This document shows positions 2,299-25,988 of a DNA stretch of 64,000 nucleotides, piece after piece. The notes under the pieces were generated by a model. It was not told the DNA's origin and made no database searches. It saw only the letters and a list, made by a program, of their open reading frames with translations. A program made the translations under genes and the position numbers. Source of the DNA: a virus (Duplodnaviria > Caudoviricetes); IMG/VR virus record IMGVR_UViG_3300029305_001221, positions 1 through 64,000 of that record; one strand, written 5' to 3'. Within the stretch, counting starts at the first letter, position 1. Every line of letters starts with the position of its first letter.

Positions 2299-2454
2299 AT
2301 AATAGAAGAGGGGCGGCCGCGTTGGCTTCCCCTTCTTTTATTTTTCGATTGAATGAAATTGCGGCTAGTAAATATAACACCACGACCAGAGTATATAACA
2401 TGTTCGTTTAAAATACAACTCCTATTATGGACAAATAGCAAAGGAGTGAGTGAT

Positions 2455-2670
2455 ATGGCAAAAGTATATGACTTTCCATTAAAGAAACTTCCAGAGGAGA
2501 TTGACGTACGCTTGGACGAAATCGCAAAGGATTATGTCATGGCATTATATGATGTAATGGATGATCTATGTGATGAGCTAGAGCCTGCGAATGATGAATA
2601 TGAGGAGGTTTTTATGGTAGTACTGATGACTCTTGTAGAAAAACTTGACAAAGCTATTGAAGGATTTTGA
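2455..2670 (+). CDS. Small acidic hypothetical protein (cassette)
   Basis: AAGGAG RBS before ATG 2455; upstream motif and downstream terminator. Confidence 0.7.
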   Translation: MAKVYDFPLKKLPEEIDVRLDEIAKDYVMALYDVMDDLCDELEPANDEYEEVFMVVLMTLVEKLDKAIEGF

Positions 2671-2773
2671 GGAGGGGTTGTAATAACCTCTTCTTTTATT
2701 TTTTTGTCCGAACATAGTGAAGACAATTGACCGCGATAATTACTTTTCCCTTTATAGAAAGGAGACGAGAAGT

Positions 2774-2989
2774 ATGATTACTAAGAAGGTTTATGTCACT
2801 GTTCTTAATCACGAAAAGTATGAGAAGGTTGTACAGGAACTAAATAAGCTTGGCGTTACTATACTTGAAAAAAGTTATAATGTAGCTTGTGATCGGTACG
2901 ATATTCTTACTGAGATGAATGTTGAACAGTGTTGCACGATGCTTACTTTTGTAAACAAACTCGGCGGCATTCTATGGAAAGGGGAGTAA
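2774..2989 (+). CDS. Small hypothetical protein (cassette)
   Basis: AAAGGAG RBS before ATG 2774; own motif and terminator. Confidence 0.65.
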   Translation: MITKKVYVTVLNHEKYEKVVQELNKLGVTILEKSYNVACDRYDILTEMNVEQCCTMLTFVNKLGGILWKGE

Positions 2990-3034
2990 CATCCCCTATT
3001 CTTTTTGTTTCGCTCCATTTACATACTCTATTAT

Positions 3035-3162
3035 GGAGAGGAAGAGTTCTGCCTACTTAGCGGTAGGAGTAAGAATTGTGGTCGTGGCCAGAAATGGTCG
3101 AGTTCTGCCTACTTAGCAGTAGGAGTAAGAATTGTGGCGGCTTTCTCTTTTGTTTTTTTTTT
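3035..3162 (+). ncRNA. Putative structured small RNA with two near-identical 38-nt hairpin arms
   Basis: Begins at the motif at 3010. Repeats at 3044-3081 and 3100-3137 differ at one base. Central GGCCA-GAAA-TGGTC hairpin. 5' AGAGGAAG pairs with 3' CTTTCTCT, followed by a U-tract. No RBS or credible ORF. Confidence 0.65.
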
Positions 3163-3252
3163 GCTAGAACAATGGAGAGCTTGTATATTATATCAATATA
3201 GTTCGCATATAAAGCATGTTATATTATGAGAAAACTAAAGGAGGACGACGAT

Positions 3253-3417
3253 ATGTCAAAAGAAGACATTATCAAAGCTATCGAGTTGATCGACGAACAA
3301 TTACAGAAAAATCACGAGGTTGGTGCTGTATATATTCCGACGACACGATTGCTTATGGATGTTCGAAAAATGTATGTTGACATGTTAAAGTACAAATACG
3401 GGGTTTTCTATACGTAA
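3253..3417 (+). CDS. Small hypothetical protein (cassette)
   Basis: AAGGAGG RBS; motif at 3203; terminator at 3425-3458. Confidence 0.65.
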   Translation: MSKEDIIKAIELIDEQLQKNHEVGAVYIPTTRLLMDVRKMYVDMLKYKYGVFYT

Positions 3418-3458
3418 GTGTAAAAGGCTCTGTCAAAACGACAGGGTCTCTTTTTTTT

Positions 3459-3530
3459 GTTAGAGTAACGACTTACAACATCCATAGCCAATCCTATATC
3501 CCCAATGATGTTATAACTCGTGACCCTAAC
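3459..3530. other. Candidate attP of the serine integrase
   Basis: 24-bp imperfect inverted arms (20/24 match) at 3459-3482 and 3507-3530 around a 24-bp centre, just past the integrase 3' end and its terminator. Confidence 0.5.
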
Positions 3531-3560
3531 AAAGAAACCCTTGATATACAAGGGCTCTCT
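3531..3560 (-). terminator. Intrinsic terminator of the integrase gene
   Basis: CCCTTG-tatat-CAAGGG hairpin followed by TTTCTTTG on the minus strand. Confidence 0.6.
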
Positions 3561-3567
3561 AAGTGTG

Positions 3568-5421
3568 CTATAGTTTTAAATCAATATGCAATTCAAGATC
3601 GTCCTCATCCTCTTTACGCCAGTTCAGACGTTTTGTTTTAGAATAGGTAATTTTTGCTATTATCGATTTCAAACTTTCATTCTTCTGTGGTATACTCATG
3701 TTGTCGTATTCATTTAAACATTCTTCAAGATTCGGTACTGCTTTCTTATATTTGATAAGGGTGCTATTATCGTCATCGTTTTCGAATTCTTCGAGCTGCG
3801 TCATCAGTTCGTTGAGTTCGGATTCGATATCGCCTTTTATCTCCACATAATCTTCATGCGGTATTGCATGCTCTTCCTGATTCTGTTTTCGTATTAGATT
3901 TTTACGTTCTTTCTTCAAACTTTCTATTTTATTTTTAATCTTGACGATACTCTTTTGTTTATTAGTTTGTTCCTTTACTATTTCTTTTTCATAGTTATTA
4001 ATGTAATATTTAAAATTTGCTAGTTGAACTTTTAAATCATCCAATATAGCTCGTTCAATTCTTTGCAAACAAGCTCCTACCATATTGCAATGCTGATTAC
4101 TACACACAAACATGTCGTTCAACGGCGGTGGATCTACATACGTCATTATCTGTTCGTCGAATTCGTCACTGTCGATTTCCAGAAAGAATTTTAGCTCATA
4201 CCATTTCTCAGTAAATAAGTCGCTATAATGGTTATGGTCTGGACGAGTATCAAACCATGTTACCACGTTATGTTTCTTGATATTTAGGAACTCCGCTATT
4301 TGTTGATAACTAACGGCCTTCTTTTCCTTATGCTCTCGCAGAAAAGCGTTCAATTTTGCTTTATTTATCTCATATTTACGGCGTTTCTTACGTTCTTTGT
4401 CGCGTCTAGTATTTTTAACCCTAACCAGGGAGTGATTGCATTTCTTACAGAATACTAGACCTGCTATAGGGTTTTGTAACTCTCGATTAAGTCCTACTCT
4501 AGACGACGGATTCCCTTTTATTTTTTCTTGGGCTAGATCCCACGTCTCTTTCGATACAATCGGATCATGTCGTCCTCTAACGAGCATATAATCATCGGTA
4601 CTAACCCGTATCTTTGTTATTTCTTCGTTTATCCATCTTTTTACGGTCGGTCGTTTACCCCATGCAGTCGAACCATAATATATTTCATTCTTCATAACAT
4701 GTCGCACCATCGCATCGTCCCAGAGTTTGTTTTTGCGAGGCTTCATGTGATGCTTATTTAAATAACTCGCTACCTCGATCGCTGTTAAATCCTCATCTAC
4801 AAACAATTTGTATATGGTTTCGACAATGGGAGCCTCGACTTTATTTTTAACAAGCATAAAACCTCGATCTAAAGCTTTTCTCTGATAACCAAACGGAGGC
4901 GTAGAGCCAACATATTTGCCTTCTCGAATTGATAAGTTCTTACCACGATCCATTATTTCTTTATGATATTCGAGATACTGGTTACCCTGCACTAATTGAG
5001 CTTCAAATAGCTGTCTATCAAACTTATTACTTAAATCATATGTCTTAGTTACCGTTACGACGAGCGTGTCAGTATATCTAAGAATGTCGACAACTCGTCC
5101 GCAGTCGGTCATTCCACCACGAGAAATACGCTGCGGTTCAACTACTAATAACCCGCGTATCGGTTCCTTTTCTAAACGCTGAAATACTTTCTTAATTTCA
5201 ATACGCTCGTCTAAGGTCTCTCCAGAAACTACCTCTCGATAGATATTTGCTTCGGGTATCTTTTGCCCGAATGTCTGCTCGGCGTAATCCTGTAATATTT
5301 TCTCATGTCGTGCTAAAACCTCTTCAACAGTTTCATTTCTCTCAGCCCTTGATTTTCTTAAATAAATTATTATTTGATCTACGCATATCTGCGAAAGTTC
5401 GTGTTGCGTGATTATATGCAT
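3568..5421 (-). CDS. Large serine recombinase (integrase) with an XRE-like HTH inserted in the zinc-ribbon domain
   Basis: YLRKSR catalytic motif; EVVSG, RISRG, recombinase domain (PPFGY), zinc ribbon CKKC...CSNQHC and coiled coil. Start at 5421 follows an AAGGGG RBS. Confidence 0.92.
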   Translation of the reverse strand: MHIITQHELSQICVDQIIIYLRKSRAERNETVEEVLARHEKILQDYAEQTFGQKIPEANIYREVVSGETLDERIEIKKVFQRLEKEPIRGLLVVEPQRISRGGMTDCGRVVDILRYTDTLVVTVTKTYDLSNKFDRQLFEAQLVQGNQYLEYHKEIMDRGKNLSIREGKYVGSTPPFGYQRKALDRGFMLVKNKVEAPIVETIYKLFVDEDLTAIEVASYLNKHHMKPRKNKLWDDAMVRHVMKNEIYYGSTAWGKRPTVKRWINEEITKIRVSTDDYMLVRGRHDPIVSKETWDLAQEKIKGNPSSRVGLNRELQNPIAGLVFCKKCNHSLVRVKNTRRDKERKKRRKYEINKAKLNAFLREHKEKKAVSYQQIAEFLNIKKHNVVTWFDTRPDHNHYSDLFTEKWYELKFFLEIDSDEFDEQIMTYVDPPPLNDMFVCSNQHCNMVGACLQRIERAILDDLKVQLANFKYYINNYEKEIVKEQTNKQKSIVKIKNKIESLKKERKNLIRKQNQEEHAIPHEDYVEIKGDIESELNELMTQLEEFENDDDNSTLIKYKKAVPNLEECLNEYDNMSIPQKNESLKSIIAKITYSKTKRLNWRKEDEDDLELHIDLKL

Positions 5422-5460
5422 GGAAAAATATACCCCTTTTCTGTTTGTCAATTTTACATT

Positions 5461-5477
5461 ATGCTTCAAATAGTGAA
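5461..5477. promoter_or_regulatory. Putative operator ATGCTTCAAATAGTGAA (identical copy at 6513-6529)
   Basis: 17-bp exact repeat with a TTCA-N5-TGAA dyad, upstream of the integrase and of gene 6553. Confidence 0.5.
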
Positions 5478-5527
5478 ATTCTCATATTTTACTGAATACA
5501 TACATATCTTTTATAGAGGTGATCGAC

Positions 5528-5680
5528 ATGAAAATTACTTATTCACGAAGAACCCCTACAAAGGAAGTTCTTCAACATGTTTATGACGTAATGAACAAAA
5601 ATATTAAGAATCCCAAATGTTTCTATACGTCAGAGCAGGTAAAAGAGCTAAAGAAAGATAAGAATAATATCTGGCTATAA
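5528..5680 (+). CDS. 50-aa basic protein, divergent from the integrase (not in the ORF track)
   Basis: GAGGTG RBS; MKITYSRRTPTKEVLQHVYDVMNKNIKNPKCFYTSEQVKELKKDKNNIWL. Confidence 0.6.
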   Translation: MKITYSRRTPTKEVLQHVYDVMNKNIKNPKCFYTSEQVKELKKDKNNIWL

Positions 5681-6058
5681 ACGAGACTGTTCTTTAGCAT
5701 GTAAGTATAACTTCATAATACTCTCGTACAATTCTTGTTTCTCATCCATCGGAACATTGTCATTTTCAAAAATTATTTTAGCGCGTTCTAACAAATCAAC
5801 CGTTTCTATCTCATTCGATTCGAAACCCAATGTCTCAATAGAAACGCTAAAGAAATCGGCTAAAGCTTTGATCTGATGGATGTTGAAATTTCTTTTTCCG
5901 GTCTCCAGATTCGAGATTTGACCTCGAGATAAGGGTTTGCCGGAGATTTTATCGCCTAACACTTCCCCTAGTTCGTCTTGCGTAATCCCTCTTGATTTTC
6001 TCAACTGTTTGACACGCTCGCCTATTTCTCTAGTATTAATCGACTTTTGAATGCGCAT
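5675..6058 (-). CDS. XRE-family repressor (CI-like)
   Basis: N-terminal HTH IGERVKQLRKSRGITQDELG...ISNLETGKR; next to the integrase. Confidence 0.85.
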   Translation of the reverse strand: MRIQKSINTREIGERVKQLRKSRGITQDELGEVLGDKISGKPLSRGQISNLETGKRNFNIHQIKALADFFSVSIETLGFESNEIETVDLLERAKIIFENDNVPMDEKQELYESIMKLYLHAKEQSRL

Positions 6059-6285
6059 CTTACCACAACCTTTCTTTTATTTTTTTTGACATAAAAATAT
6101 TTTTAAGAAAAACATATCTTTTTTTGATGTTTTTCATTTTTATATTTTTACATAAAAATATTCAAATAGCAAACTTTTTGATTTTTAGTTATACAAAACA
6201 CATACATATTTCACAAATTAGTTTTAATATAGTAGTGTGAAAAACAAAACATATGTTCTAATGCATAAATAAGGAGTGGGGATAC

Positions 6286-6447
6286 TTGGAGGGCGTCGCA
6301 AAAGTAATCGATGAATTAGGTTTAATGATTCTTGCCAAAAACGTTGAACTCGAAACAAAGCAAGATGAGATTGATAGACTAAAAGAGAAGATAAACTTAA
6401 TGGAGAGCTATTTAGAAGTATACGAAGAATTCTATAGTAAACTTTAG
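6286..6447 (+). CDS. 53-aa coiled-coil protein (not in the ORF track)
   Basis: AAGGAG RBS, TTG start, MEGVAKVIDELGLMILAKNVELETKQDEIDRLKEK... Confidence 0.5.
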   Translation: MEGVAKVIDELGLMILAKNVELETKQDEIDRLKEKINLMESYLEVYEEFYSKL

Positions 6448-6552
6448 TCGATAGGATATCTGGTCATGCTGAACGGTTAAGGCAACATTGTTTGGCATTT
6501 TTTTTAAAGCGAATGCTTCAAATAGTGAATTTAGAAAGGGGTATGTTAACAA

Positions 6553-6957
6553 ATGGCTACGGTAATACGTCCAGAGATATCGGAGAAGAACAAATACTAC
6601 ATAAGTAAACATAGACATTACGAGCTGAAGCATTTCTGCCTTCAATATCCGGAATGGAGACGCTCATATACAGAAGCGGATGGATTTGGACGAATTGCTT
6701 CTGAATCCGATACGAGATATTCTGATAGGACTGCTAAACACGGAACATTAAGAGCTAAGTACATAGATAGAATAAGACTTATAGAAGAAGCTGCGAGATT
6801 GGCTGATAATGATCTCTCGTCATATATTTTAAAAGGAGTAACCGAGGGTTATTCGTATACATATTTAAAAACTACAATGGGTATGCCGTGCGGTAGAGAC
6901 ATGTATTATGATCGATACAGACGATTCTTCTGGCTGCTTAGTCAATCGCGAGATTAA
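6553..6957 (+). CDS. Putative phage transcriptional regulator (ArpU/RinA-like)
   Basis: Size and the C-terminal YSYTYL...CGRDMYYDRYRRFFWLL helix pattern recall phage activators; adjacent to the immunity region. Confidence 0.45.
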   Translation: MATVIRPEISEKNKYYISKHRHYELKHFCLQYPEWRRSYTEADGFGRIASESDTRYSDRTAKHGTLRAKYIDRIRLIEEAARLADNDLSSYILKGVTEGYSYTYLKTTMGMPCGRDMYYDRYRRFFWLLSQSRD

Positions 6958-6988
6958 CCGTCCCTATTATAGAAAGGGAGTGTTAGAT

Positions 6989-7198
6989 ATGAAATGGAAA
7001 AGCATATTGTCGCATGGATTAGTATTAGTTACCGGTTATGGAATCGGGAAGATCGTTGGAGGTTTGAAAGTCTGCAAATTTATGGCAGATGAATTCGAAA
7101 AGGAATTTCCTGGTTTTAAGAAAGGAGTAACTAAGGCTGCTAGCGACAAAGTTATCGATCGCATGTTTAATGAAACCGAGGAACGCGAAGGGGTGTAA
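6989..7198 (+). CDS. Small membrane protein (cassette)
   Basis: N-terminal hydrophobic GLVLVTGYGIG; own motif and terminator. Confidence 0.7.
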   Translation: MKWKSILSHGLVLVTGYGIGKIVGGLKVCKFMADEFEKEFPGFKKGVTKAASDKVIDRMFNETEEREGV

Positions 7199-7274
7199 CA
7201 ACCCCTTTTTGTTTTGTTCGCGTATTTTTCAGCGTCCTTTATGAAGTATAAATTATTTTAGGAGGTATAAAACT

Positions 7275-7559
7275 ATGACACCTATTTATATGTACGGATT
7301 GGGCGGATACGAGGATCATTTCAGGATTATCGTACACTGGCGCATCGATGAGGATATGGACAATTACGAGGACGTATTTGATTTGTGCAAAAGCAAAGCT
7401 TCATATATGAGATATAAACATCCATCTGTGAAGGAAGTTTATGCAATATATCAGAAACCCGGATTGGCGCATGACTATCAGCGCACGGTTAAGAAGAATG
7501 ACATAGAGCATTGTGTCGCCTTCCGAGACATGCTTAGAGCAAAGGGAATGGATTTCTAA
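7275..7559 (+). CDS. Hypothetical protein (cassette)
   Basis: GGAGG RBS; motif at 7218; terminator at about 7583-7612. Confidence 0.7.
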   Translation: MTPIYMYGLGGYEDHFRIIVHWRIDEDMDNYEDVFDLCKSKASYMRYKHPSVKEVYAIYQKPGLAHDYQRTVKKNDIEHCVAFRDMLRAKGMDF

Positions 7560-7696
7560 AAGCAAGTTATACTCGAAAAGAGAAGAGCTCTTAAAACGGG
7601 CTCTTTTCGTTTTTCGGCAGAACTAAGAGACGGCAGTCGCGTATAATACAGCCCCCTTTATGAAGTAAATACATATATTTTGAGAGGAGAATAACT

Positions 7697-7963
7697 ATGA
7701 AAAAGTTATGTGTACTTATGGGGTTGGCATTAGTGATTTGCGGATGGATTGGTCTGGCAATGCTTAACAATAATGAGGTTGTATCCGATGAGGATATCGC
7801 AATGAGTTATATCATCAACGAATACGGAGAGGATGACTACGAACTAGTCATGTACGAAGAGGAGGATGATGAATATATCAAGTTTGCGGTTTTCAAGGAC
7901 GGGAAACCTTTCAGAACTTGTAGCATTTTAAGAGATTATTATCTAGTTCACGCGGATAGCTGA
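7697..7963 (+). CDS. Small exported/membrane-anchored protein (cassette)
   Basis: N-terminal signal or TM segment, acidic body. Confidence 0.7.
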   Translation: MKKLCVLMGLALVICGWIGLAMLNNNEVVSDEDIAMSYIINEYGEDDYELVMYEEEDDEYIKFAVFKDGKPFRTCSILRDYYLVHADS

Positions 7964-8058
7964 GGCTATCCCTTTTTATTTCTGAACATTAGTGAGGGGA
8001 TCGGTCGCGTAAATTGCACGTTACTTTATAGAAATAATGAAAAAGGAGATGTACTATT

Positions 8059-8244
8059 ATGGCACCTTGTGAAATGGGATATAGAGACAATTTTCAGGAT
8101 AAGAAGATCAAACACAAGAATAAGACTCAATTCAACTTGGGTAGGATTCTTGAGACGATCGCAGACTACCTGTGGATGATCGCAATATTCCCAATCGCAT
8201 TCGTCGTCAGAGTATTCAGATGGACTTATCATTACGACGACTAA
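8059..8244 (+). CDS. Small membrane protein (cassette)
   Basis: C-terminal TM LWMIAIFPIAFVV. Confidence 0.65.
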   Translation: MAPCEMGYRDNFQDKKIKHKNKTQFNLGRILETIADYLWMIAIFPIAFVVRVFRWTYHYDD

Positions 8245-8348
8245 GAGGCTTCGGCCTCTTTTTTATTTCTAAAATATCTAAGAAAATCGTCGCATAAATT
8301 ACACGCTCCTTTATGGAAACAATTTACATTACAAAGGAGACTATACAT

Positions 8349-8552
8349 ATGAAGAAGTTTGAAAAGTATTTGAAGAAGTTTGTGCTGTATCTTTGCGAAA
8401 CATACAAGAATAAGCTTTGCGCTTTGGCATTGCTTATCTGCGGATGGATTCCGTTAAAGATTAGCGGCGATGGAACTGCTTTGATGATTATTGGCTTTTT
8501 CGCAATTGGATTGTTCTTTGCGAGAACGGATTGGTTCTTAAAGAAAAATTGA
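8349..8552 (+). CDS. Small two-TM protein (cassette)
   Basis: AAGGAG RBS, two hydrophobic segments. Confidence 0.65.
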   Translation: MKKFEKYLKKFVLYLCETYKNKLCALALLICGWIPLKISGDGTALMIIGFFAIGLFFARTDWFLKKN

Positions 8553-8659
8553 GGAGACTTCGGTCTCTTCTTTTATTTTTTAAATCTAGATTAGATCTCG
8601 CGTAAATTACACATCCCTTTATGGAGTAAACAAGCATATAATCGAAAGGGGAAATAATT

Positions 8660-8830
8660 ATGTTGAACTTTATTACTATTATCGCTGGAGTTATGATTGG
8701 AACGCTTTTGGCTGGCGTTGTGACATTCGTAGTAATGACATATACGCCGTTCTTTGGCTGGTACATGAAGAAAGTCGCGAAGATGAGTAAGGAGATCACT
8801 GAGGAACTCATGGAGGAGTATGATCTGTAA
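8660..8830 (+). CDS. 56-aa membrane protein (not in the ORF track)
   Basis: MLNFITIIAGVMIGTLLAGVVTFVVM...; motif at 8598, terminator at 8842-8870. Confidence 0.65.
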   Translation: MLNFITIIAGVMIGTLLAGVVTFVVMTYTPFFGWYMKKVAKMSKEITEELMEEYDL

Positions 8831-8876
8831 ACTCAGAACGAGAGTCTAAGAAATTCTTAGGCTCTTTTTCTTTTAT

Positions 8877-8918
8877 TTCTGAAGATATCTGAGGAAATTC
8901 TGAAGTTGTCTGAGGAAA
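8877..8918 (+). repeat. 21-bp tandem repeat TTCTGAAG(A/T)T(A/G)TCTGAGGAAA x2; related copy at 49510-49530
   Basis: Direct inspection; each occurrence directly follows a terminator U-tract. Confidence 0.7.
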
Positions 8919-9052
8919 TCTAGGATAGAACTTTTAAACCTAGCTTAATAATATTCCGCACACAGACGACCATTTCAGGTGTTAAATTGATATCGTTCCG
9001 GAAAAATTCCCCGGGTTAGAAATTTCGAAAAACAAAATGAAAGGAGATAAAT

Positions 9053-9271
9053 ATGGGGTATGTAATAGTCTTCATTCTCGCATTATTACTCGGCACATTC
9101 GTAGGTATATTACTGACGCATTTAAAATCGTCTGGAATTATAAGAGTAACTGGAGCCGATGAAGACGGTATGTATTTGGGCCTAGTTGTTAGCAAGAGTC
9201 CTGCTGATTTCATGCGTCACAAGTACGTAACGTTTAAAGTCGACAACTCTTATTTCAATTCGCACAAATAA
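9053..9271 (+). CDS. Small membrane protein
   Basis: N-terminal TM; AAAGGAG RBS. Confidence 0.7.
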   Translation: MGYVIVFILALLLGTFVGILLTHLKSSGIIRVTGADEDGMYLGLVVSKSPADFMRHKYVTFKVDNSYFNSHK

Positions 9272-9323
9272 CAAGTCCTATTACGGTAATATCAAATTAT
9301 ATTTTTGAAAGGAGAAATCTAAA

Positions 9324-9716
9324 ATGATTAACGAACCTAAAAGACTGCTACGGGAGGAATTCCGAAAAGAGGTCGAGGAGCTTAGCAAGATTTCCGTTGG
9401 AACTGAAGAATACAAGGTTGCAGTTGACGGGGTCGCTAAGATTGCGGATCGAATTATCGAGATCGAAAAACTCGAAGTCGATGTTCGTGACAAGGAGGTA
9501 AATCGAGAAGTCGATGCTGACTTGAAGCGCGAGCAGATGGCTGAGGAGAAGAAAGATCGAATTATTCGAAATGCGATCACGGTCCTGACTACTGCGGCTG
9601 GATTCGGATTGACCATCTGGGGTTACTTGACTGAACTCAAGTACGACGAGAAGGGAGCTATGCCTAGAACGCTGTTAGGTAAGGAATTTGCGAAAGGATT
9701 GTTCCGCAGAAAGTAA
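9324..9716 (+). CDS. Coiled-coil protein with a C-terminal TM (cassette)
   Basis: Motif at 9260; RBS; terminator at about 9736-9767. Confidence 0.7.
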   Translation: MINEPKRLLREEFRKEVEELSKISVGTEEYKVAVDGVAKIADRIIEIEKLEVDVRDKEVNREVDADLKREQMAEEKKDRIIRNAITVLTTAAGFGLTIWGYLTELKYDEKGAMPRTLLGKEFAKGLFRRK

Positions 9717-9857
9717 GCTGATTTATCATTCTACCAAGGGGCTATGGAAACATAGTCTCTTGTTTTTGTCCGAACCTGATGAAGGTAACAGACGCGGAAA
9801 TTGCACGTCCTATTATGGAATCAATTATTTAATTAAATGGTAAAGGAGGACGATTAA

Positions 9858-9935
9858 TTGGTAATCTTAGGATTTGCACTAGTAATCGTTGGTTGCATCA
9901 TTATTATGAAAGGTTCAAGCAACGGGGGGTCGTAA
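9858..9935 (+). CDS. 25-aa TM micropeptide
   Basis: AAAGGAGG RBS, TTG start, MVILGFALVIVGCIIIMKGSSNGGS; own motif (9792) and terminator. Confidence 0.55.
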   Translation: MVILGFALVIVGCIIIMKGSSNGGS

Positions 9936-10058
9936 TGACCCCTTTTTGTTTTCTATAAGAATTCAGTAATAATGTCCTAATCTTTTCTTTTCGGCGCGAA
10001 ATTTACAGCCACCTTTATGAAAAGGAAGAGGTAAATTGAACGGAGAAAGGATTATATT

Positions 10059-10157
10059 ATGACTACTAGTATGATGTTAATGTTTATGATTGCTATTAGC
10101 ATAGGATTATCTATCGATGAGAAATTGCATGAAAACGACGGAGAGTCCGAGCAGTAA
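10059..10157 (+). CDS. 32-aa micropeptide with a hydrophobic N-half
   Basis: AAAGGA RBS, MTTSMMLMFMIAISIGLSIDEKLHENDGESEQ; own motif (9994) and terminator. Confidence 0.5.
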   Translation: MTTSMMLMFMIAISIGLSIDEKLHENDGESEQ

Positions 10158-10197
10158 TGTTCGACTCTTCATTTTTATTTTCTCCGGGAGGTGACTT

Positions 10198-10557
10198 ATG
10201 AGGTATCATTACGAAAAACCTGCCATTTTTTCATCGATGTACGGAACTACATATAAATGTGAGCATCCCGTGTATGACAAATGCACACTTTTCGAAATAG
10301 CTGGGAGAGGGCTCGCTATAATTCAACAGAGATATGACCCGAATAGCAAGCGGACCTGGTGGAGTGAGATAGATCCTTGGCTTACCGATGAGATATATCT
10401 GCATTCTAAATTTAAACAATTGTTCGATGAACGAGCTGACGAGCCTATGGATGGTTTATACCCAACTGCTAGCATACGACAGGTCATGTGGGCGCTTAAA
10501 ATGAAACCTATTCCAAAAGAGCGATGGGAAACATGTTTCGATAGACGTCTTATCTAG
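10198..10557 (+). CDS. Conserved phage hypothetical protein
   Basis: GGGAGGTG RBS, 119 aa. Confidence 0.7.
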   Translation: MRYHYEKPAIFSSMYGTTYKCEHPVYDKCTLFEIAGRGLAIIQQRYDPNSKRTWWSEIDPWLTDEIYLHSKFKQLFDERADEPMDGLYPTASIRQVMWALKMKPIPKERWETCFDRRLI

Positions 10558-10623
10558 TCGCGTAATTTGCATCCTCCTTTATGAAACCGAAACGGTTAAT
10601 ACATTATGAAAAGAGGAACGATT

Positions 10624-10857
10624 ATGGGTAAAACTATGAGCGAACGTTATAACGAGAGTATGGACAATCTGATGAAGATGTTCGGCAAGATGTTTCTGGA
10701 ATCCGATATGGATGAAGAAGCGATCAAGGCGTATGTCATTCTGAAGGATATGGTCACACTGTCGAAAGACATGGTTCGAGCTCAGGAGGAGACCATCGAG
10801 AATCAGAAGCATATTATTAAGATGCTGGAAGGGATCACAGAAAAAATTGGAGTATAA
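10624..10857 (+). CDS. Small coiled-coil protein (cassette)
   Basis: Motif at 10558; terminator at 10858-10880. Confidence 0.65.
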   Translation: MGKTMSERYNESMDNLMKMFGKMFLESDMDEEAIKAYVILKDMVTLSKDMVRAQEETIENQKHIIKMLEGITEKIGV

Positions 10858-10959
10858 GAGGGGCTTCGGCCTCTTTTATTTTTCTGACATTGTGCAGCAA
10901 TAGCAGTCGCAAATTTTACAACTTACTTTATGAAAGAATATTTTAAGGAGGTTTAAATT

Positions 10960-11085
10960 ATGAAAACTTTTCTGAGCTTTGTGACAGGCGTGTTCGTCGG
11001 AGCAGTTGGCTATGCAGCGGCTACGATCACAATGCCGAGCCTGCGCGATGCGGCCGAAGTTCTCAGTTGGAAACTTACTAGATAA
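10960..11085 (+). CDS. 41-aa membrane peptide
   Basis: AAGGAGG RBS, MKTFLSFVTGVFVGAVGYAAA...; own motif and terminator. Confidence 0.6.
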   Translation: MKTFLSFVTGVFVGAVGYAAATITMPSLRDAAEVLSWKLTR

Positions 11086-11190
11086 TATCTTGGCGAAACG
11101 GAGTCTAAGAAATTCTTAGGCTCTTGTTTCTTGAACAAATGGATGGACGCGAAATTATCACAGGCTATTATGAAAAGGAGGTAAATAATT

Positions 11191-11370
11191 ATGATTTTAT
11201 TCACATTATTGCTGCTCACATCGATTATTTTGGCAACGGTCACGGTGATCACGCTTGTAAGCGTTGGCGCTGGATTCATTGTCATCTTTGGCGATGTGAT
11301 TGTATTCTGTGCGATCATTGTCTTTATTATGAAAGCCTTTATCAAGAAAAGAAAACAGAAGAAGAACTGA
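11191..11370 (+). CDS. 59-aa two-TM protein with a basic tail
   Basis: AAGGAGG RBS, MILFTLLLL...KKRKQKKN. Confidence 0.65.
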   Translation: MILFTLLLLTSIILATVTVITLVSVGAGFIVIFGDVIVFCAIIVFIMKAFIKKRKQKKN

Positions 11371-11436
11371 GCCCTTCGGGGCTCTTTCTCTTTCATTTTT
11401 CTCTTCGAATTCGCGAAAAAATCAAGTTCTATTATG

Positions 11437-11511
11437 GAAACGGTGAGCTCGATTGGTAGAGCATTACACTTAACCGTGTAAAGGCTGCAGGTTCGAATCC
11501 TGCACTGTTTC
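11437..11511 (+). ncRNA. tRNA-like RNA with a non-canonical anticodon loop and no encoded CCA
   Basis: Acceptor GAAACGGT/ACTGTTTC, D arm GCTC-GATTGGTA-GAGC, T arm GCAGG-TTCGAAT-CCTGC, anticodon arm TTACA-CTTAACCG-TGTAA. Confidence 0.65.
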
Positions 11512-11548
11512 TTTTTAGCTTTTACTAACCCGAAAGGTGAGGAGAAAA

Positions 11549-12322
11549 ATGGAGAAATTAGCACATCAAGCAATATTATTTTTGAAGCGCAATTCGTCAA
11601 CGGTCTTAACTTGCGTAGGAGCAGCTGGGGTAATTGCAACTTCCGTACTGGCAGTAAAAGCTACACCAAAGGCACGTATGCTTATCGATGAGGCTGAAGA
11701 TGTAAAGGGCGAGCCTCTTACAAAATTAGAGACAGTTAAAGTGGCTGGACCTGCGTATATCCCGACTGTGATTACGGGTACAGCTACTATCGCTTGTATT
11801 TTTGGAGCGAATATACTGAACAAACGAAGTCAAGCAGCCTTAACTAGCGCATATGCATTACTCGACAATTCTTATAAAGAGTATAAAAAGAAAGTCGAAG
11901 AATTATATGGCGAAGAGGCTAGCGCTAAGGTTCGAGAAGAAATAGCTAAGGATGCGTTTGAAGAACATCCGATTAAAGCGTCTAACGATAAGCAGCTATT
12001 CTATGACATGTATTCGGACAGATATTTCGAGTCTACAATGCAGAAAGTTCTGGAAGCACAGTATAGTTTGAATCGATCTTTCACAACTAAAGACTACGCA
12101 TATTTGAATGAGTTCTATGATTATCTAGAGATAGATACGATTCCTTCAGGCTATAAACTAGGATGGTCTACAGCTCAATGTTTAGAGATGTACTGGCAGT
12201 CTTGGATCGATTTCAACAACGAATTAATCACGATCGATTCTGACGACCCTGAGTACGAAGGACTTGAATGTTGTGTAATTAGCATAATGACAGATCCGAT
12301 AGTTGGATTTGAAGATTATTAA
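11549..12322 (+). CDS. DUF6353-like protein, paralog 1
   Basis: RNSSTVLTCVGAAGVIATSVLAVKATPKA N-terminus and LNEFYDYL...GW C-terminus are shared with 12593 and 15031. Confidence 0.7.
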   Translation: MEKLAHQAILFLKRNSSTVLTCVGAAGVIATSVLAVKATPKARMLIDEAEDVKGEPLTKLETVKVAGPAYIPTVITGTATIACIFGANILNKRSQAALTSAYALLDNSYKEYKKKVEELYGEEASAKVREEIAKDAFEEHPIKASNDKQLFYDMYSDRYFESTMQKVLEAQYSLNRSFTTKDYAYLNEFYDYLEIDTIPSGYKLGWSTAQCLEMYWQSWIDFNNELITIDSDDPEYEGLECCVISIMTDPIVGFEDY

Positions 12323-12365
12323 ATCGCGATAAAAGCAAACCGTTTAATGAAAGGAGGAATGTTTA

Positions 12366-12542
12366 GTGAAAACCTTTAAGAAACCCGATGCTGCGTTGAT
12401 CTGGACCGTAATTGCAGGTGTGACGTCTGTTCTTGGATTTATTGCAAATCATAAGAAAGAGGCTAGCGCTAGCAGTGCACAGGAAGATCGAATCGTAGAG
12501 AAGGCTGCTGAAAAAGTTTTACAGAAACTATCCGAAAACTAA
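12366..12542 (+). CDS. 58-aa membrane protein (not in the ORF track)
   Basis: AAAGGAGG RBS, GTG start, TM ALIWTVIAGVTSVLGFIA; own motif and terminator. Confidence 0.6.
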   Translation: MKTFKKPDAALIWTVIAGVTSVLGFIANHKKEASASSAQEDRIVEKAAEKVLQKLSEN

Positions 12543-12592
12543 AAAAGGGTCCTACGGGACCTTTTAATTTTTGAAAGGAGTATAAGTAAACA

Positions 12593-13369
12593 ATGGGCAA
12601 ATTCAATGTAATGGCGTTCGCTAAAGGTTTGCGTTCGTCCGTATCAAAACACAGTCCTGAAATTCTCACAGGTCTTGGTATCGCCGGCATGGTCGGTACG
12701 GTAGTAATGGCAGTCAGAGCAACGCCGAGAGCTATGGAGCTTATCGATGAAAAGTGTCTAGAAGATGGGGTGGATAAACTTACTCCCGTAGAAACTGTTA
12801 AAGCAGCTTGGAGACCGTATGTTCCTGCTACGATTACTGGCGCAATGTCTGTCGCATGTCTAATCGGCGCGAGTTCGGTTAATGCGAAGCGTAATGCCGC
12901 TCTAGCAGCAGCTTATACTATTTCCGATACCGCTCTAAGAGAGTATCGCGATAAGGTCATTGAGACTGTTGGCGAGAAGAAAGAGAAAACTATTCGCGAT
13001 GAAGTCGCAAAGGATCGTCTTGAAAAAAGTCAGTCTAATCCTAGCACGGTTATCGTGACTGGTGCCGGTTCTACCGTATGCTATGACGTTATCACAAGAC
13101 AGCGTTTTACGTCGAATATCGATAAGATTCGTAAGATCGAGAACGAACTTAACAAACGTATGCTGTCTGGGGAGGACTATATTTCTCTGAATGAGTTCTA
13201 TTATGAGCTTGGTCTAGATAGTGTAGCCATCGGTGACGAATTAGGCTGGAATGTTAGCTCAGGTCTTATCGATCTCGAATTTAGCGCTCAGTTAGATGCC
13301 GACGGTACTCCTTGTATCGTAATCGACTACAGAGTAGCGCCTGTTAGGGGTTATTCGACCTACGCATAA
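12593..13369 (+). CDS. DUF6353-like protein, paralog 2
   Basis: KHSPEILTGLGIAGMVGTVVMAVRATP...LNEFYYELGL...GW. Confidence 0.7.
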   Translation: MGKFNVMAFAKGLRSSVSKHSPEILTGLGIAGMVGTVVMAVRATPRAMELIDEKCLEDGVDKLTPVETVKAAWRPYVPATITGAMSVACLIGASSVNAKRNAALAAAYTISDTALREYRDKVIETVGEKKEKTIRDEVAKDRLEKSQSNPSTVIVTGAGSTVCYDVITRQRFTSNIDKIRKIENELNKRMLSGEDYISLNEFYYELGLDSVAIGDELGWNVSSGLIDLEFSAQLDADGTPCIVIDYRVAPVRGYSTYA

Positions 13370-13441
13370 TTCGCGAAAATTGCAAGTTATTTAATGGAAG
13401 AATAATAAATAAATTTTTATAACCGAAAGGAGAAAACAATT

Positions 13442-13723
13442 ATGTACGAAAACGAAATCAAGAACGAACTCATGGAGAACGAAGAGGTTCTGGTTATGAC
13501 CGAATCTACTGAAGTCGAAGAGAAGGAGTCTGGTATTGGCACTTTGGCCGCTATGGCTATCGGAGCCGGCGTTACCGCAGCAGGTATTGCTGTAGTGAAG
13601 CTGGGTAAGAAGGGCATTAAGTGGCTGAAGGCTAAGAAGGACGCTTCCAAGGCTAAGGTCGATAAGGATGCCGATGCCGAAAACGCTCCCGCTGAGAACG
13701 TTGAGGAAGCTGAGGAAAATTGA
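13442..13723 (+). CDS. Small single-TM protein with acidic ends (cassette)
   Basis: Motif at 13371; terminator at 13757-13800. Confidence 0.7.
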   Translation: MYENEIKNELMENEEVLVMTESTEVEEKESGIGTLAAMAIGAGVTAAGIAVVKLGKKGIKWLKAKKDASKAKVDKDADAENAPAENVEEAEEN

Positions 13724-13817
13724 CAACCTGGAAGGTAAGAATTAAAAGTTCTTACGAGAGGGGAGTACCTTAATAAAACGAGGTACTTTCCTCTTTATTT
13801 TTTTGAAAGGAGAGCGC

Positions 13818-22041: not shown

Positions 22042-22521
22042 ATGGCTTATAGAAGAGTTGACAATCTGATGATCGAGAACGCCCGCATTATGTGGCCTAA
22101 CTTTGCTGGCGAGGAAAAGCAGTACAATCGTAAGGGCGATCGTAACTTCTGTGTCGTTATTGACGATCCCGACGAAGCACAGCGTCTGTCTGAAGATGGC
22201 TGGAATGTAAAGATCCTGGCTCCTCGCGATGAAGACGAGATGCCTCTGCATTATATTCAGGTTACTGTTCGCTTCGACAACTTCCCGCCTAAGGTGTGGA
22301 TGATTACCGGTCGCAAGAAGAACCTGCTGGATGAGGACTCTGTCGGTTGTCTGGACTATGCTGAGATCCAGAATGCCGACGTTATCATTAGCGGTTCTTG
22401 CTGGGAGGTTAATGGTAAGACCGGTATTAAGGCTTATCTGAAGACTGCTTACGTTGTCATCGAGCAGGACGATTTCGCTAGCAAGTATAACTGGGAAGAA
22501 GACGAGATCTCTGCGTTTTGA
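22042..22521 (+). CDS. Single-stranded DNA-binding protein
   Basis: Follows the polymerase; aromatic beta-rich body and acidic C-tail EEDEISAF. Confidence 0.65.
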
Positions 22522-24704: not shown

Positions 24705-25988
24705 ATGAGAAAAGAAAAACCGCCCTTCCTCTATCCATACCAAATGGACGCTGTGAAGAGAATGCGAAATGGCTGTATCTTATGCGGAGGCGTCGGGAGT
24801 GGCAAGAGCAGAACTGGTTTATATTACTATTTCAAAGAACAAGGCGGTAGTATAGATCCAGATTATATTCCTATGAAAAAACCAAAAGATCTATACATTA
24901 TAACGACTGCCCGTAAGAGAGATACTTTGGAGTGGGAAGGCGAACTTGCTAATTTCATAATCTCAAAAAATCCGGAGGCAAGTTATTACAAAAACAAAGT
25001 AGTTGTCGACTCGTGGAATAACATTGGTAAGTACGTGGATGTGAAAGGCGCATTCTTCATTCTAGACGAGCAGAGGCTAGTCGGAAGCGGTGCCTGGGTC
25101 AAAGCGTTCTATAAAATCGCTGCGAAAAACGATTGGATTCTACTATCCGCTACTCCAGGAGATACATGGCAAGACTACAGACCGGTATTTATCGCAAACG
25201 GTTTCTATAAAAACAAAACCCATTTTAATAGGGATCATATTGTGTGGGACCATCGAGTTAAGAAATATCCGAAAATCGATAGGTATATAAACGAAGGTCG
25301 ACTGATTAGACTGCGTAATCGTATTCTAGTTGATATGGATTTTAATCGACCGACTACTTCTCACCATGAAGACGTATATGTGCATTATGATATTCAGCTA
25401 TACAAGGATACGACCCGAAATCGAGTCAACCCATTCGAGATGGAAGTCTGGGATGACGGATCTGAACATAATCCTCCCATTAAAAGTGCTAGCGAGTTGT
25501 GTTATATTTGGCGCAAAATTGTTAATTCTGCTGAATCTCGTCAAGTTGCATTATGTGAGCTATTTGAGAAGCATCCGAAGATGATCGTGTTTTACAATTT
25601 TGACTATGAACTTGATATTTTAAAGAGTATCTATTTCGGCGAAGATGTCGAGGTAGCAGAATGGAATGGACATAAGCATCAACCGGTCCCAACAAGCGAT
25701 AGGTGGGTATATTTATGCCAATATACGAGTTCTTGTGAGGGTTGGAATTGCATAACGACCGATACCGTCGTCTTCTATTCTCAGAATTACTCTTATAAAG
25801 TTATGGAGCAAGCCTCTGGTCGAATTGATAGATTGAATACTCCTTTCCGAGACCTATATTATTATCACCTCAAAACGCGGGCTGGTATTGATTTGGCCAT
25901 TAGTAAAGCTCTGAAAGAGAAGAAGAATTTCAACGAGGGTCGTTATGTGCAGCGAATGTCTAAAGGTTATGAGAGAAGAGCCGCATAA
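24705..25988 (+). CDS. SF2 (SNF2/DEAD-like) helicase
   Basis: YPYQ Q-motif, GVGSGKS, FILDEQ, LLSATP, CEGWN, QASGRIDR. Confidence 0.9.
   Translation: MRKEKPPFLYPYQMDAVKRMRNGCILCGGVGSGKSRTGLYYYFKEQGGSIDPDYIPMKKPKDLYIITTARKRDTLEWEGELANFIISKNPEASYYKNKVVVDSWNNIGKYVDVKGAFFILDEQRLVGSGAWVKAFYKIAAKNDWILLSATPGDTWQDYRPVFIANGFYKNKTHFNRDHIVWDHRVKKYPKIDRYINEGRLIRLRNRILVDMDFNRPTTSHHEDVYVHYDIQLYKDTTRNRVNPFEMEVWDDGSEHNPPIKSASELCYIWRKIVNSAESRQVALCELFEKHPKMIVFYNFDYELDILKSIYFGEDVEVAEWNGHKHQPVPTSDRWVYLCQYTSSCEGWNCITTDTVVFYSQNYSYKVMEQASGRIDRLNTPFRDLYYYHLKTRAGIDLAISKALKEKKNFNEGRYVQRMSKGYERRAA

Follow-up and report, generated by a model that had tools for sequence, protein, structure and literature searches.

Promoter/terminator junctions probably serve as portable short-homology exchange sites for gene cassettes in the phage studied here, in a PeSL-like and moron-like manner; we put the probability of this reading at roughly 0.65. 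The main array lies at positions 2300-13800 of the window, the 64,000-nt stretch of DNA analysed. Its carrier is a temperate FP_oengus-like phage of gut Clostridia with a genome of 82.5 kb, of which the array forms the accessory early/middle part. The array is a fixed conserved scaffold interleaved with self-contained expression units. Genome comparisons have shown turnover of the accessory units among relatives under a constant scaffold order, with promoter-to-promoter gain or loss of units as the typical event; they also support recombination at the junctions.

Architecture of the cassette array

Each unit opens with a 30-nt promoter and closes with an intrinsic terminator; the cargo in between is a single small gene, in most cases a membrane ORFan, or an RNA (Table 1). 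The initial annotation had described about 20 such units in this region. The promoter-gene-terminator array is confirmed by 19 motifs and an enrichment of terminators; the count was slightly too high, and the 72-aa and 119-aa genes have no motif of their own. The first 16 kb contain 29 terminator-like hairpins with a T-run, versus 10.8 +/- 3.3 in shuffled sequences, and approximately 18 of the 29 are located on the + strand directly 3' of small genes. TM-like helices occur in 13 of 21 cargo proteins.

The scaffold order is 134-aa gene, 130-aa gene, 119-aa gene, tRNA-like RNA, and three DUF6353 paralogues. In all relatives, the array begins at the stop codon of the 134-aa gene, and units located after conserved genes have no terminator upstream of them. 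The lysogeny module (serine recombinase and XRE repressor) lies inside the stretch, yet outside the cassette array and its mechanism.

Table 1. Features of the array at 2300-13800 and related elements elsewhere in the window
Feature	Position	Strand	Details
Unit 1	2404..2700	+	variant motif 2405 (CGTT for CGCG); 71-aa gene 2455-2670; terminator 2669-2695
Unit 2	2731..3005	+	motif 2732; 71-aa gene 2774-2989; terminator 2980-2997; 90% protein cluster, 72 members
Unit 3	3010..3162	+	motif 3011; non-coding RNA, two 38-nt repeats (3044-3081, 3100-3137); T-run
Unit 4	3203..3460	+	motif 3204; 54-aa gene 3253-3417; terminator 3425-3449
Large serine recombinase (phage integrase)	3568..5469	-	Resolvase, Recombinase, Zn_ribbon_recom; phrog_95
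XRE/CI-type repressor	5675..6058	-	lysogeny switch
134-aa scaffold gene, conserved	6553..6957	+	phrog_11237; first conserved gene past lysogeny switch
Unit 5	6946..7215	+	motif 6947 over stop of 134-aa gene; 69-aa gene 6989-7198; terminator 7187-7208
Unit 6	7218..7615	+	motif 7219; 94-aa gene 7275-7559; terminator 7580-7608
Unit 7	7637..7980	+	motif 7638; 88-aa membrane/lipoprotein-like gene 7697-7963; terminator 7954-7971
Unit 8	8005..8268	+	motif 8006; 61-aa gene 8059-8244; terminator 8243-8260, hairpin GGCTTCGGCC, repeat copy at 10862
Unit 9	8290..8580	+	motif 8291; 67-aa gene 8349-8552; terminator 8551-8570; 90% cluster, 39 members
Unit 10	8598..8875	+	motif 8599; 56-aa gene 8660-8830; terminator 8840-8866, 25 nt shared with 11101
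72-aa membrane protein gene	9053..9271	+	no own motif
Unit 11	9260..9770	+	motif 9261 over upstream stop; 130-aa gene 9324-9716 (semi-conserved, phrog_15866, 47/80 loci); terminator 9735-9762
Unit 12	9792..9952	+	motif 9793; 25-aa hydrophobic micro-ORF 9858-9935; terminator 9924-9944
Unit 13	9994..10180	+	motif 9995; 32-aa micro-ORF 10059-10157; weak hairpin + T-run
119-aa scaffold gene, conserved	10198..10557	+	phrog_17256, 74/80 loci; no own motif
Unit 14	10558..10885	+	motif 10559 adjoining stop of 119-aa gene; 77-aa gene 10624-10857; terminator 10854-10879
Unit 15	10907..11130	+	motif 10908; 41-aa gene 10960-11085; terminator 11100-11124 (= 8842 repeat)
Unit 16	11147..11395	+	motif 11148; 59-aa membrane gene 11191-11370; terminator 11369-11384
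Unit 17	11411..12322	+	motif 11412; tRNA-like RNA 11437-11512 directly past TTATG; DUF6353 paralogue 1, 11549-12322
Unit 18	12324..12570	+	motif 12325; 58-aa gene 12366-12542; terminator 12544-12565
DUF6353 paralogue 2, scaffold gene	12593..13369	+	
Unit 19	13371..13800	+	motif 13372; 93-aa gene 13442-13723; terminator 13756-13795
Single-strand annealing / ssDNA-binding protein	22042..22521	+	phrog_4787; PF24083
Second small array	25981..27040	+	motifs 25982, 26345, 26667, 26968
PD-(D/E)XK exonuclease	56736..57299	+	candidate partner of annealing protein
915-aa two-barrel (YonO/RdRP-like) RNA polymerase	57303..60050	+	C-terminal HTH

Identical terminators and junctions border unrelated cassettes in the window genome. 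The terminators at 8842 and 11101 form an exact repeat of 24-25 nt (shuffles expect 0); GGCTTCGGCCTCTTTT recurs exactly at 8247 and 10862, GAAGAGATCGCATGGTCTCTTC at 26304 and 26640, and CTTTCGCGAAGTTTTCA at 26341 and 26663. These four of the five junction repeats listed initially are far beyond chance. The fifth, GCAGC(A/G)ATAGCAG near 10894 and 55745, is present, but a rough estimate places a 13-mer with one free position at about chance level in 64 kb. Genome-wide, exact direct repeats of at least 15 nt amount to 75, compared with 4.65 in Markov-1 simulations. In the second small array, the cassette 26345-26667 lies between near-identical terminator-plus-promoter junctions (26303-26361 and 26639-26683). 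Exact identity in the window genome reaches 25 nt between terminators and 15-17 nt between promoter copies, whose identity over 34 nt does not exceed 76%; the local recombination substrate is therefore short.

The motif and its putative polymerase

The 30-nt motif, TCGCGnAAATTnCA-N5-CTTTATG, has 19 copies on the + strand of 2300-13800 (sites 2405-13372), most of them preceding a single small gene or RNA with a hairpin and T-run at its end. A position weight matrix trained on the window detects 28 sites in the 82.5-kb genome, all on the + strand; the same scan reveals no site on the - strand and no site scoring 12-20 bits on either. Outside the main array, sites are located at 22587, 45360, 49167, 55390, 55827, and in the second small array. 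Single units within operons, placed by the initial annotation at 25981, 45359, 49166 and 55389, thus coincide with motif sites at 25982, 45360, 49167 and 55390. The overlap with the last codons of the upstream gene, noted there for 6946, 9260, 25981 and 49166, likewise holds, as upstream stop codons lie inside the motif at 6947, 9261, 25982 and 49167; they adjoin it at 10559, 12325 and 13372.

Across 222 related loci (3.38 Mb), 1894 sites map to the + strand versus 0 to the - strand. Among the tRNA or tRNA-like genes on the gene strand, 76 of 91 begin 0-5 nt past TTATG, and therefore the motif reaches the transcription start and is not sigma-70-like. It is a candidate phage-specific promoter with a conserved block up to the start site.

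The phage's own two-barrel RNA polymerase is the likely reader of this promoter. The enzyme is encoded in five of five diverse relatives and in 250 phage records, and the motif is also carried by Arthrobacter phage Dynamite, at the equivalent genome position (10 versus 0 sites by strand). Reading by the host polymerase together with the 134-aa protein, which is found in FP_oengus-like records only, is a doubtful alternative.

Turnover of cassettes and breakpoints among relatives

The test for cassette exchange was run at the family level, on the 222 related loci. Conserved scaffold genes are collinear in 164 of 164 loci, and the units between scaffold anchors vary there from 1-10 and 2-11. Scaffold genes are found in 47-80 of 80 related loci, in which most small window genes have no homologue; small cassettes between scaffold genes are hypervariable among related loci, and replacements of entire cassettes span the interval from a conserved promoter to the following junction. 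The reordering proposed initially applies to accessory cassettes, with one RNA cassette at three distinct array positions, but not to the scaffold with its single order.

That cassettes are gained and lost at junctions, as the initial annotation held, is borne out at this level: content varies, and indel breakpoints cluster in promoter/terminator junctions. A first set of 44 events had the left breakpoint at the motif in 30 cases (null 5.8) and both ends in 13 (null 0.8). The expanded set, a comparison of close relatives, comprises 33 clusters and 91 events, 48 being pure indels; both ends fall at the motif in 26 of the 91 versus a null of 2.1 (maximum 8, 2000 trials). Motif-to-motif indels (21 of the 48) show overlapping homology on the promoter (median 38 bp, range 11-82), and junction alignments reveal chimeric promoters on some short alleles. 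Promoter copies around an indel are 67% identical, versus 55% in other adjacent pairs (p = 6e-6). Among cultured phages, a two-cassette indel separates Dynamite from Arcadia and Cheesy, and its overlap of 66 bp falls on the motif. Some indels extend between successive terminator tails rather than promoters, about one quarter of the in-array indels of the expanded set lie within gene bodies, and the majority of right-hand ends of its replacements are away from the motif.

It should be added that a promoter-headed unit landing before another promoter gives overlapping alignments under any insertion mechanism. Selection against broken units would likewise crowd surviving breakpoints into junctions.

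These data can also be read as an ordinary multi-promoter early region, in which functional constraint makes junctions alike, homology-independent illegitimate recombination strikes anywhere, and selection keeps intact units, i.e., classic Hendrix mosaicism. We consider this unlikely. The low exact identity of the promoter copies in the window genome would fit, as would several indels with 0-9 bp overlap that end at terminator T-tails or within genes, and the UUCG-capped GC hairpins at 8247 and 10862 could be convergent. However, the promoter overlaps of the 21 indels, the chimeric promoters, and the significantly greater likeness of indel-flanking promoters argue against it, and exact 22-25-nt terminator repeats with unrelated flanks exceed what constraint alone would produce.

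Single-cassette islands of 88-95% identity, with edges at motifs, connect otherwise divergent loci. Along the window array, units whose 90%-identity clusters are shared with ~97-kb contigs alternate one by one with private ones: the Unit 6 cluster is present on more than 200 other contigs, and the Unit 7 gene is private to the window phage. At the gene level, these cluster sizes suggest that the array is mosaic unit by unit. No relative of the conserved 134-aa gene exceeds 72% once its own 90% cluster is set aside. Cluster-size asymmetry could partly stem from unequal evolutionary rates instead of exchange.

Local tandem duplication (promoter included) or replication slippage, with cargo diverged beyond recognition and junction likeness as a remnant of descent, appears improbable. 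It would explain that neighbouring promoters are slightly more similar than distant ones (p = 0.007 against random pairs) and that the junction pair 26304-26683 encloses a single cassette, and the three DUF6353 paralogues demonstrate that duplication happens in the array. Yet neighbouring cargo genes have no detectable similarity, cluster sizes alternate as described, and the same cassette occurs at 85-100% identity, at three positions, in phages otherwise divergent.

A true integron-like or site-specific system, in which a recombinase such as the serine integrase would act on the motif or the hairpins, is close to refuted. A recombinase gene does lie within the stretch, and repeated sequences, hairpins included, bound the cassettes; however, crossovers spread over 11-82 bp with no single fixed core, and indels of this kind also occur in lytic Arthrobacter phages that lack an integrase. 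A dedicated recombinase site is not needed, in line with the initial proposal of exchange without an integron integrase. The label "integron-like" itself is not upheld, as the phage genome contains no tyrosine recombinase or IntI. An integron with a common promoter and promoterless cassettes was rejected, each cassette having its own promoter; so were the hairpins as integron-type recombination sites, a GC stem plus T-run on the coding strand marking ordinary terminators.

Under the exchange-site reading, the repeated promoter and terminator tail would provide portable sites of short homology. If two copies recombine or undergo copy-choice, the intervening units would be deleted or released as a circle, and recombination with another phage bearing the same signal would insert or swap units. 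The annealing protein, a candidate enzyme for short-homology recombination, and the exonuclease would probably catalyse these steps.

Relation to known systems

Junction-mediated cassette shuffling is already known from T4-type phages, where promoter-early stem-loops (PeSLs) were published by Arbiol et al. 2010 (PMC2839356) and Comeau et al. 2014 (PMC4122927). It is the closest known system: there too, composite promoter-plus-stem-loop junctions ahead of ORFans in hyperplastic regions (PMC2839356, PMC4122927) bound insertions, deletions and replacements between close relatives, and the mechanism proposed for them is that repeated regulatory cassettes recombine with one another. In contrast, the promoter described here is not sigma-70-like, is conserved up to the start site, and is accompanied by a two-barrel phage RNA polymerase in both Firmicutes and Actinobacteria phages. 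The carriers, temperate or lytic, are siphoviruses of 55-100 kb rather than T4-like myoviruses, and the terminator is a separate hairpin before the promoter that does not overlap the promoter boxes.

Morons of lambdoid and other temperate phages were reportedly described by Juhala, Hendrix and colleagues in 2000. A moron combines a gene with a promoter and a terminator of its own, sits between conserved genes and is variably present among relatives; morons are usually single, have promoters of host type and are active in the prophage. The units here are likewise self-contained, variably present and located between conserved genes, but up to ~10 stand in tandem, share one phage-specific promoter, and have the promoters themselves as exchange sites.

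The SPO1 host-takeover module and the early clusters of phages K and T5 are dense groups of tiny early genes with a promoter and terminator each or every few genes, encoding many small membrane or host-directed proteins. The window array likewise packs very small early genes, with signals of their own, closely together; the SPO1 module, located in the terminal redundancy, uses host sigma-A promoters, whereas the window array has phage-specific ones. To our knowledge, junction-mediated shuffling has not been shown for the SPO1 module. The resemblance to integrons is limited to the broad concept of single-gene cassettes that can be exchanged within an array: recognised attI or attC sites and a common Pc promoter are absent, cassettes bring their own promoters and terminators, and exchange is homology-based.

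YonO of SPbeta is a single-chain two-barrel RNA polymerase (PMC5467207), and an enzyme of this kind, which the window genome encodes as well, is predicted for the actinophage/1706/FP_oengus supercluster (bioRxiv 10.1101/842583). In this literature, activity is predicted and no promoter is named (PMC5467207, bioRxiv 10.1101/842583). The motif sites described here supply a candidate promoter set, which would double as the cassette boundary.

Architecture of the array and its junctions

The window represents the first 64 kb of a virus record of 82,536 bp that CheckV rated complete. Its primase-polymerase reveals 61% identity to the counterpart in Faecalibacterium phage FP_oengus and about 50% identity to those in many Gordonia, Arthrobacter, and Streptomyces phages. 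Tail genes are located 5' of the array (2300-13800); replication genes, an annealing protein, an exonuclease, and an RNA polymerase lie 3' of it (see Table). The phage is temperate; a serine recombinase and an XRE repressor are encoded inside the 2300-13800 stretch.

Using a weight matrix built from the window, 28 copies of a motif, TCGCGnAAATTnCA-N5-CTTTATG(R)AA, were identified, all of them on the plus strand and with scores above 20 bits, cleanly apart from the background. 19 copies fall within 2405-13372, a region of approximately 21 genes in which most units are closed by terminators. At 15-60 nt 3' of nearly every copy, a Shine-Dalgarno sequence and a small ORF of 25-130 aa are found, and 13 of the 21 cargo proteins contain a TM-like helix. 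Two copies precede an RNA instead of an ORF, namely a 38-nt tandem-repeat RNA (3044-3137) and a tRNA-like RNA. The former belongs to a promoter-driven non-coding RNA whose two 38-nt repeats (3044-3081 and 3100-3137) differ by one base. The three DUF6353 paralogues of the region all possess a hydrophobic segment at the N-terminus. The first 16 kb contain 29 terminator-like hairpins, compared to 10.8 ± 3.3 in shuffled sequences, and about 18 of them close plus-strand units. Inspected by eye, they consist of GC stems followed by T-runs on the coding strand, and are thus regarded as terminators.

Features discussed in the text, with window coordinates
Feature	Coordinates	Strand	Remark
Promoter-driven non-coding RNA	3036-3162		
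Large serine recombinase	3568-5469	-	inside 2300-13800
XRE repressor	5675-6058	-	inside 2300-13800
134-aa protein	6553-6957		phrog_11237
tRNA-like RNA	11437-11512		
DUF6353 paralogues	11549-12322, 12593-13369, 15031-16053		phrog_2152; interleaved with variable cassettes
Single-strand annealing protein	22042-22521		
82-nt exact direct repeat	41644-41725, 42309-42390		
PD-(D/E)XK exonuclease	56736-57299		
915-aa single-chain two-barrel (YonO/RdRP-like) RNA polymerase	57303-60050		phrog_4291
Conserved element of about 90 nt	60328-60440		

The initial annotation had described an array of promoter-gene-terminator cassettes with repeated junctions, and this observation is confirmed. Four of the repeats it quoted are real: a 24/25-nt terminator at 8842 and 11101 (0 expected), a 22-nt terminator at 26304 and 26640, a 17-nt promoter half at 26341 and 26663, and a 16-nt UUCG hairpin at 8247 and 10862. 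The fifth, the 13-mer GCAGC(A/G)ATAGCAG at 10894 and 55745, is at about chance level by a rough estimate. Genome-wide, 75 exact repeats of at least 15 nt compare to 4.65 expected. The spacer from terminator tail to promoter is partly conserved as well (2688-2735 resembles 55752-55800), and hence the junction is a composite element; the cassette at 26345-26667 is flanked by near-identical terminator-plus-promoter junctions on both sides. Promoter copies in this genome share at most 17 nt of exact identity, so that recombination has a short substrate locally, and neighbouring promoters resemble each other slightly more than random pairs do (p = 0.007).

Outside the motif arrays, the 82-nt direct repeat spans, in two genes, the ribosome-binding site along with the 5' end, and shorter repeats of ribosome-binding site and gene start occur at 41640, 43070, and 48268. 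Together, these repeats point to a recent gene duplication or conversion.

Turnover of cassettes among relatives

Related arrays were found on IMG/VR contigs, in human-gut metagenomes, and in prophages of Lachnospiraceae, Oscillospiraceae, Ruminococcus, Hungatella, Enterocloster, and others. Even the closest of the 222 loci from the IMG/VR, metagenome, and GTDB collections is at most about 68% identical to the window on the nucleotide level, with no HSP reaching 85%, and a megablast search of the array against the INPHARED phages gave no match. Used as queries, the 94-aa cassette gene at 7275 retrieved nothing usable from IMG/VR or INPHARED and one weak match (33%) from about 800 Clostridia genomes, and the 130-aa gene at 9324 a single INPHARED match (38%).

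The proteins of the array were compared to 80 related loci by tblastn. The 134-aa protein is present in 80/80, the 119-aa protein in 74, each of the three DUF6353 paralogues in 73, a 205-aa protein in 67, and the 130-aa protein in 47, and about a dozen other small array genes have no match in these loci. In 164 of 164 loci the order of these scaffold genes is identical, and the intervals separating the anchors hold 1-10 and 2-11 motif units. It is thereby confirmed that the array carries ORFans as cargo amid the conserved genes of a hyperplastic region, and cassette content is not fixed among relatives.

Since no locus exceeds approximately 68% identity to the window, breakpoints were mapped within clusters of close relatives from the family, not in the window's own lineage. 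A first set of 16 clusters, compared by chained BLAST alignments, yielded 44 non-redundant in-array events. Upstream homology ends between -20 and +75 nt of the motif start in 30 of them, compared to 5.8 for random positions (largest value 15 in 5000 trials), and both ends lie at a motif in 13 (0.8 expected). When all 222 loci were included, 33 clusters revealed 91 events, 48 pure indels and 43 replacements, with both ends at a motif in 26 of the 91 (2.1 expected, largest value 8 in 2000 trials). 21 of the 48 pure indels run from motif to motif and comprise one unit in 16 cases, two in four, and three in one; the alignments on either side have 11-82 bp in common (median 38), and this shared stretch is the promoter. 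The promoter copies flanking an indel show 67% identity over 55 nt, compared to 55% for other adjacent pairs (Mann-Whitney p = 6e-6), and short alleles carry chimeric promoters whose 5' side corresponds to the left copy and whose 3' side corresponds to the right copy (for example in the locus pairs L079/L080 and L059/L060). Of the 43 replacements, 34 have their left boundary at a promoter; right boundaries are placed less regularly. In a few events both ends are terminator tails and the overlap is 9 bp, and about one quarter of the indels fall in gene bodies. The cultured Mudcatvirus phages provide a further example, a two-cassette indel between Dynamite on the one hand and Arcadia and Cheesy on the other, with flanks overlapping by 66 bp on the motif. 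At one site 5' of the 134-aa gene, three different cassettes (L021:8835-9115, L022:8775-9114, and L023:8988-9115) alternate with an empty allele (L010, position ~9114), in which the upstream promoter half alone is fused to the terminator T-tail. Thus, as the initial annotation had anticipated, breakpoints are concentrated at junctions, with homology inside the junction, in relatives of the window.

In one of two close relatives, a 1.3-kb insertion (L057:2838-4136 versus L055:4059-4062) is located in the loop or stem of a terminator hairpin; possibly, it is a mobile element or a homing endonuclease gene.

The breakpoint pattern, as seen in sequence comparison, is the kind that direct repeats give rise to through short-homology recombination or copy-choice. 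Selection for intact units surely also shapes the events that survive. Selection alone, however, leaves both the homology tracts and the higher similarity of the flanking copies unexplained. When one promoter copy recombines with another, the units in between would be deleted, leaving a chimeric promoter, or alternatively a circle with one promoter would be released. Cargo would be swapped when the recombination partner is a co-infecting relative or a resident prophage carrying the same signal. The annealing protein and the exonuclease of the phage are candidate enzymes for these steps.

Islands of 88-95% identity occur between otherwise divergent loci and often extend from motif to motif. A mobile non-coding cassette of about 150-190 nt, closed by an 11-bp stem and bearing a U-tail, is found at three positions in 11 loci (L031:13783-13971 and 10 others). 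Seven of these loci carry it between the 119-aa gene and the first DUF6353 gene, one carries it between the 134-aa gene and the 130-aa gene, and three carry it 5' of the 134-aa gene. Rfam has no matching family, and the fold energy of the cassette does not stand out (z = -0.9).

For the window itself, mosaicism was assessed by exact look-ups of its proteins in 90%-identity clusters. Large clusters (11-72 members) contain the DNA polymerase, the RNA polymerase, the second DUF6353 paralogue, and the cassette genes at 2774, 7275, 8349, 9324, 10624, and 12366; small ones (1-4 members) contain the genes at 6553, 7697, 8059, 8660, 9053, 10198, 11549, 13442, and 14039. Both classes alternate along the array. 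For most large clusters, members lie on contigs as long as about 97 kb, in some cases on more than 100 contigs, and Logan/ENA contigs of about 97 kb have several window cassettes in common at ≥90%. Few genes of the family are as well conserved as the 134-aa gene, yet its nearest relative outside its own cluster is only 72% identical. As unequal rates alone do not readily account for a conserved gene that has diverged further than the ORFans beside it, this gene-level evidence makes unit-scale mosaicism the simpler reading of the window's own array.

Promoter class and its candidate reader

In the 222 related loci and this genome (3.38 Mb), 1894 motif sites are located on the gene strand and 0 on the opposite strand. 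Among the 91 tRNA and tRNA-like genes on the gene strand, 76 begin 0-5 nt (mostly 1-2 nt) after TTATG. Transcription would therefore start at or just after this G, and the conserved block would cover approximately -26 to -1. Positions -12 to -7, where the -10 box of a sigma-70 promoter would be, are variable and GC-rich, and a host sigma-70 promoter was rejected on this geometry. The geometry matches that of a phage-polymerase promoter: as in this class with its T7-like logic, the block is contiguous and includes the start site, a single strand is used, and a phage RNA polymerase co-occurs.

This polymerase shows a sub-threshold match to a Pfam RdRP domain at residues 517-627 and a C-terminal HTH at 875-912 (HTH_38/sigma-region-4-like). 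All 5 of the diverse relatives examined encode it, and so do 250 cultured phages of Actinobacteria and Firmicutes, with the gene at their right genome end. For the supercluster of actinophages, 1706, and FP_oengus, the polymerase has been predicted with no promoter mentioned (bioRxiv 10.1101/842583), and the YonO promoter is likewise not known (PMC5467207).

Alternatively, the motif might be read by the host polymerase together with the 134-aa protein. This protein, conceivably a sigma factor, activator, or antiterminator, is always the first conserved gene product after the lysogeny switch and is encoded immediately 5' of the array. Its family, which comprises more than 5,000 protein clusters in public databases, has an invariant ELKHFCLQY..W block and an HTH-like C-terminal part. 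Searches against Pfam and NCBIfam and a profile search of the PDB gave no match. With its AlphaFold model (pLDDT 79), Foldseek found nothing at E ≤0.001, with only weak matches to sigma-factor chains, and VIA-align reached a best Z of 6.3, which is noise level for helical proteins, with a chain of a phage Q antiterminator complex at Z 6.1. The 134-aa gene is detectable only in FP_oengus-like records. Arthrobacter phage Dynamite, the one actinophage checked, encodes the polymerase without a detectable 134-aa homologue, and carries the same motif before small post-lysis genes with a strand ratio of 10:0. Owing to these distributions, the phage polymerase is favoured as the predicted reader, with a probability of roughly 0.7, and a reader composed of host polymerase and 134-aa protein seems unlikely.

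The tRNA-like RNA occurs in the window and in 76 places in related loci; throughout the family it follows a motif promoter immediately and lies just 5' of the first DUF6353 gene. It matches the Rfam tRNA model with 52 bits, and ARAGORN could name no anticodon. After the polymerase gene and one small conserved gene, the element of about 90 nt with G8 and C5 runs, GGGGGGGGTC..ACACCCCCT..CATCGCG..CTCCGGGGG..TTTTTGAAAA, is shared with the relatives L223, L225, L226, and L227. The contig of one relative ends within it, and the same position is the physical genome end in lytic relatives; the element is a candidate cos site or late promoter.

Comparison with known systems and implications

Of the proposed integron-like array, junction-bounded turnover stands for the relatives, while the likeness to an integron does not. 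Integrons carry an IntI-type tyrosine recombinase beside the array and promoterless cassettes behind one common Pc. Here, a search for PF00589 gave no match in the complete 82.5-kb genome (control positive in 14 of 14 genomes), the local recombinase is of the large serine type, about 21 genes are served by 19 motif promoters, and crossover points are variable. An integron and a site-specific recombinase system were both rejected on this recombinase content and on the indel in the Mudcatvirus phages, which are lytic and lack an integrase.

The closest known system is the PeSL of T4-type phages, in which the ORFans of hyperplastic regions are flanked by strong early promoters combined with stem-loops; these elements delimit the indels between phi1 and RB49 and give rise to mini-circles (PMC2839356, PMC4122927). 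Array and PeSLs agree in architecture, a composite junction of stem-loop terminator and promoter before ORFans in a hyperplastic region, and in comparative signature, with indels and replacements of close relatives (here, relatives of the window) bounded by junctions with homology. They differ in phage lineage, host range, and promoter class, as the motif is not a strong early promoter of sigma-70 type and also occurs in an actinophage. Each unit further qualifies as a moron by its own promoter and terminator, by its position between conserved genes, and by its variable presence. SPO1-type host-takeover modules, which are located in the terminal redundancy, differ in promoter type by their host sigma-A promoters.

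Members of this phage family abound in gut metagenomes and among the prophages of Lachnospiraceae, Oscillospiraceae, and Ruminococcus, and their accessory genes are nearly all unknown small membrane proteins and RNAs. If the junctions are exchange sites, the boundaries of accessory genes would be predictable from sequence alone, the array would amount to a natural inventory of host-takeover or anti-defence genes, each selected independently, and these phages could be engineered with the signal as a landing pad. Cultured relatives in which the idea can be tested directly exist: Arthrobacter phages on ATCC 21022, Lactococcus 1706-like phages, and FP_oengus. Speculatively, the promoter of the phage two-barrel RNA polymerase might double as a universal portable recombination site across the very large supercluster of Firmicutes and Actinobacteria phages. 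Any gene behind the 30-nt signal would then be both expressible and exchangeable throughout this supercluster, and unit circles or short-homology crossovers via the phages' own annealing protein would feed a cross-phylum market of small host-takeover and anti-defence genes. Apart from this speculation, the findings extend the PeSL idea, developed for T4-type phages with host-type promoters, to an unrelated lineage with its own polymerase, which suggests that regulatory repeats drive phage gene turnover in general.
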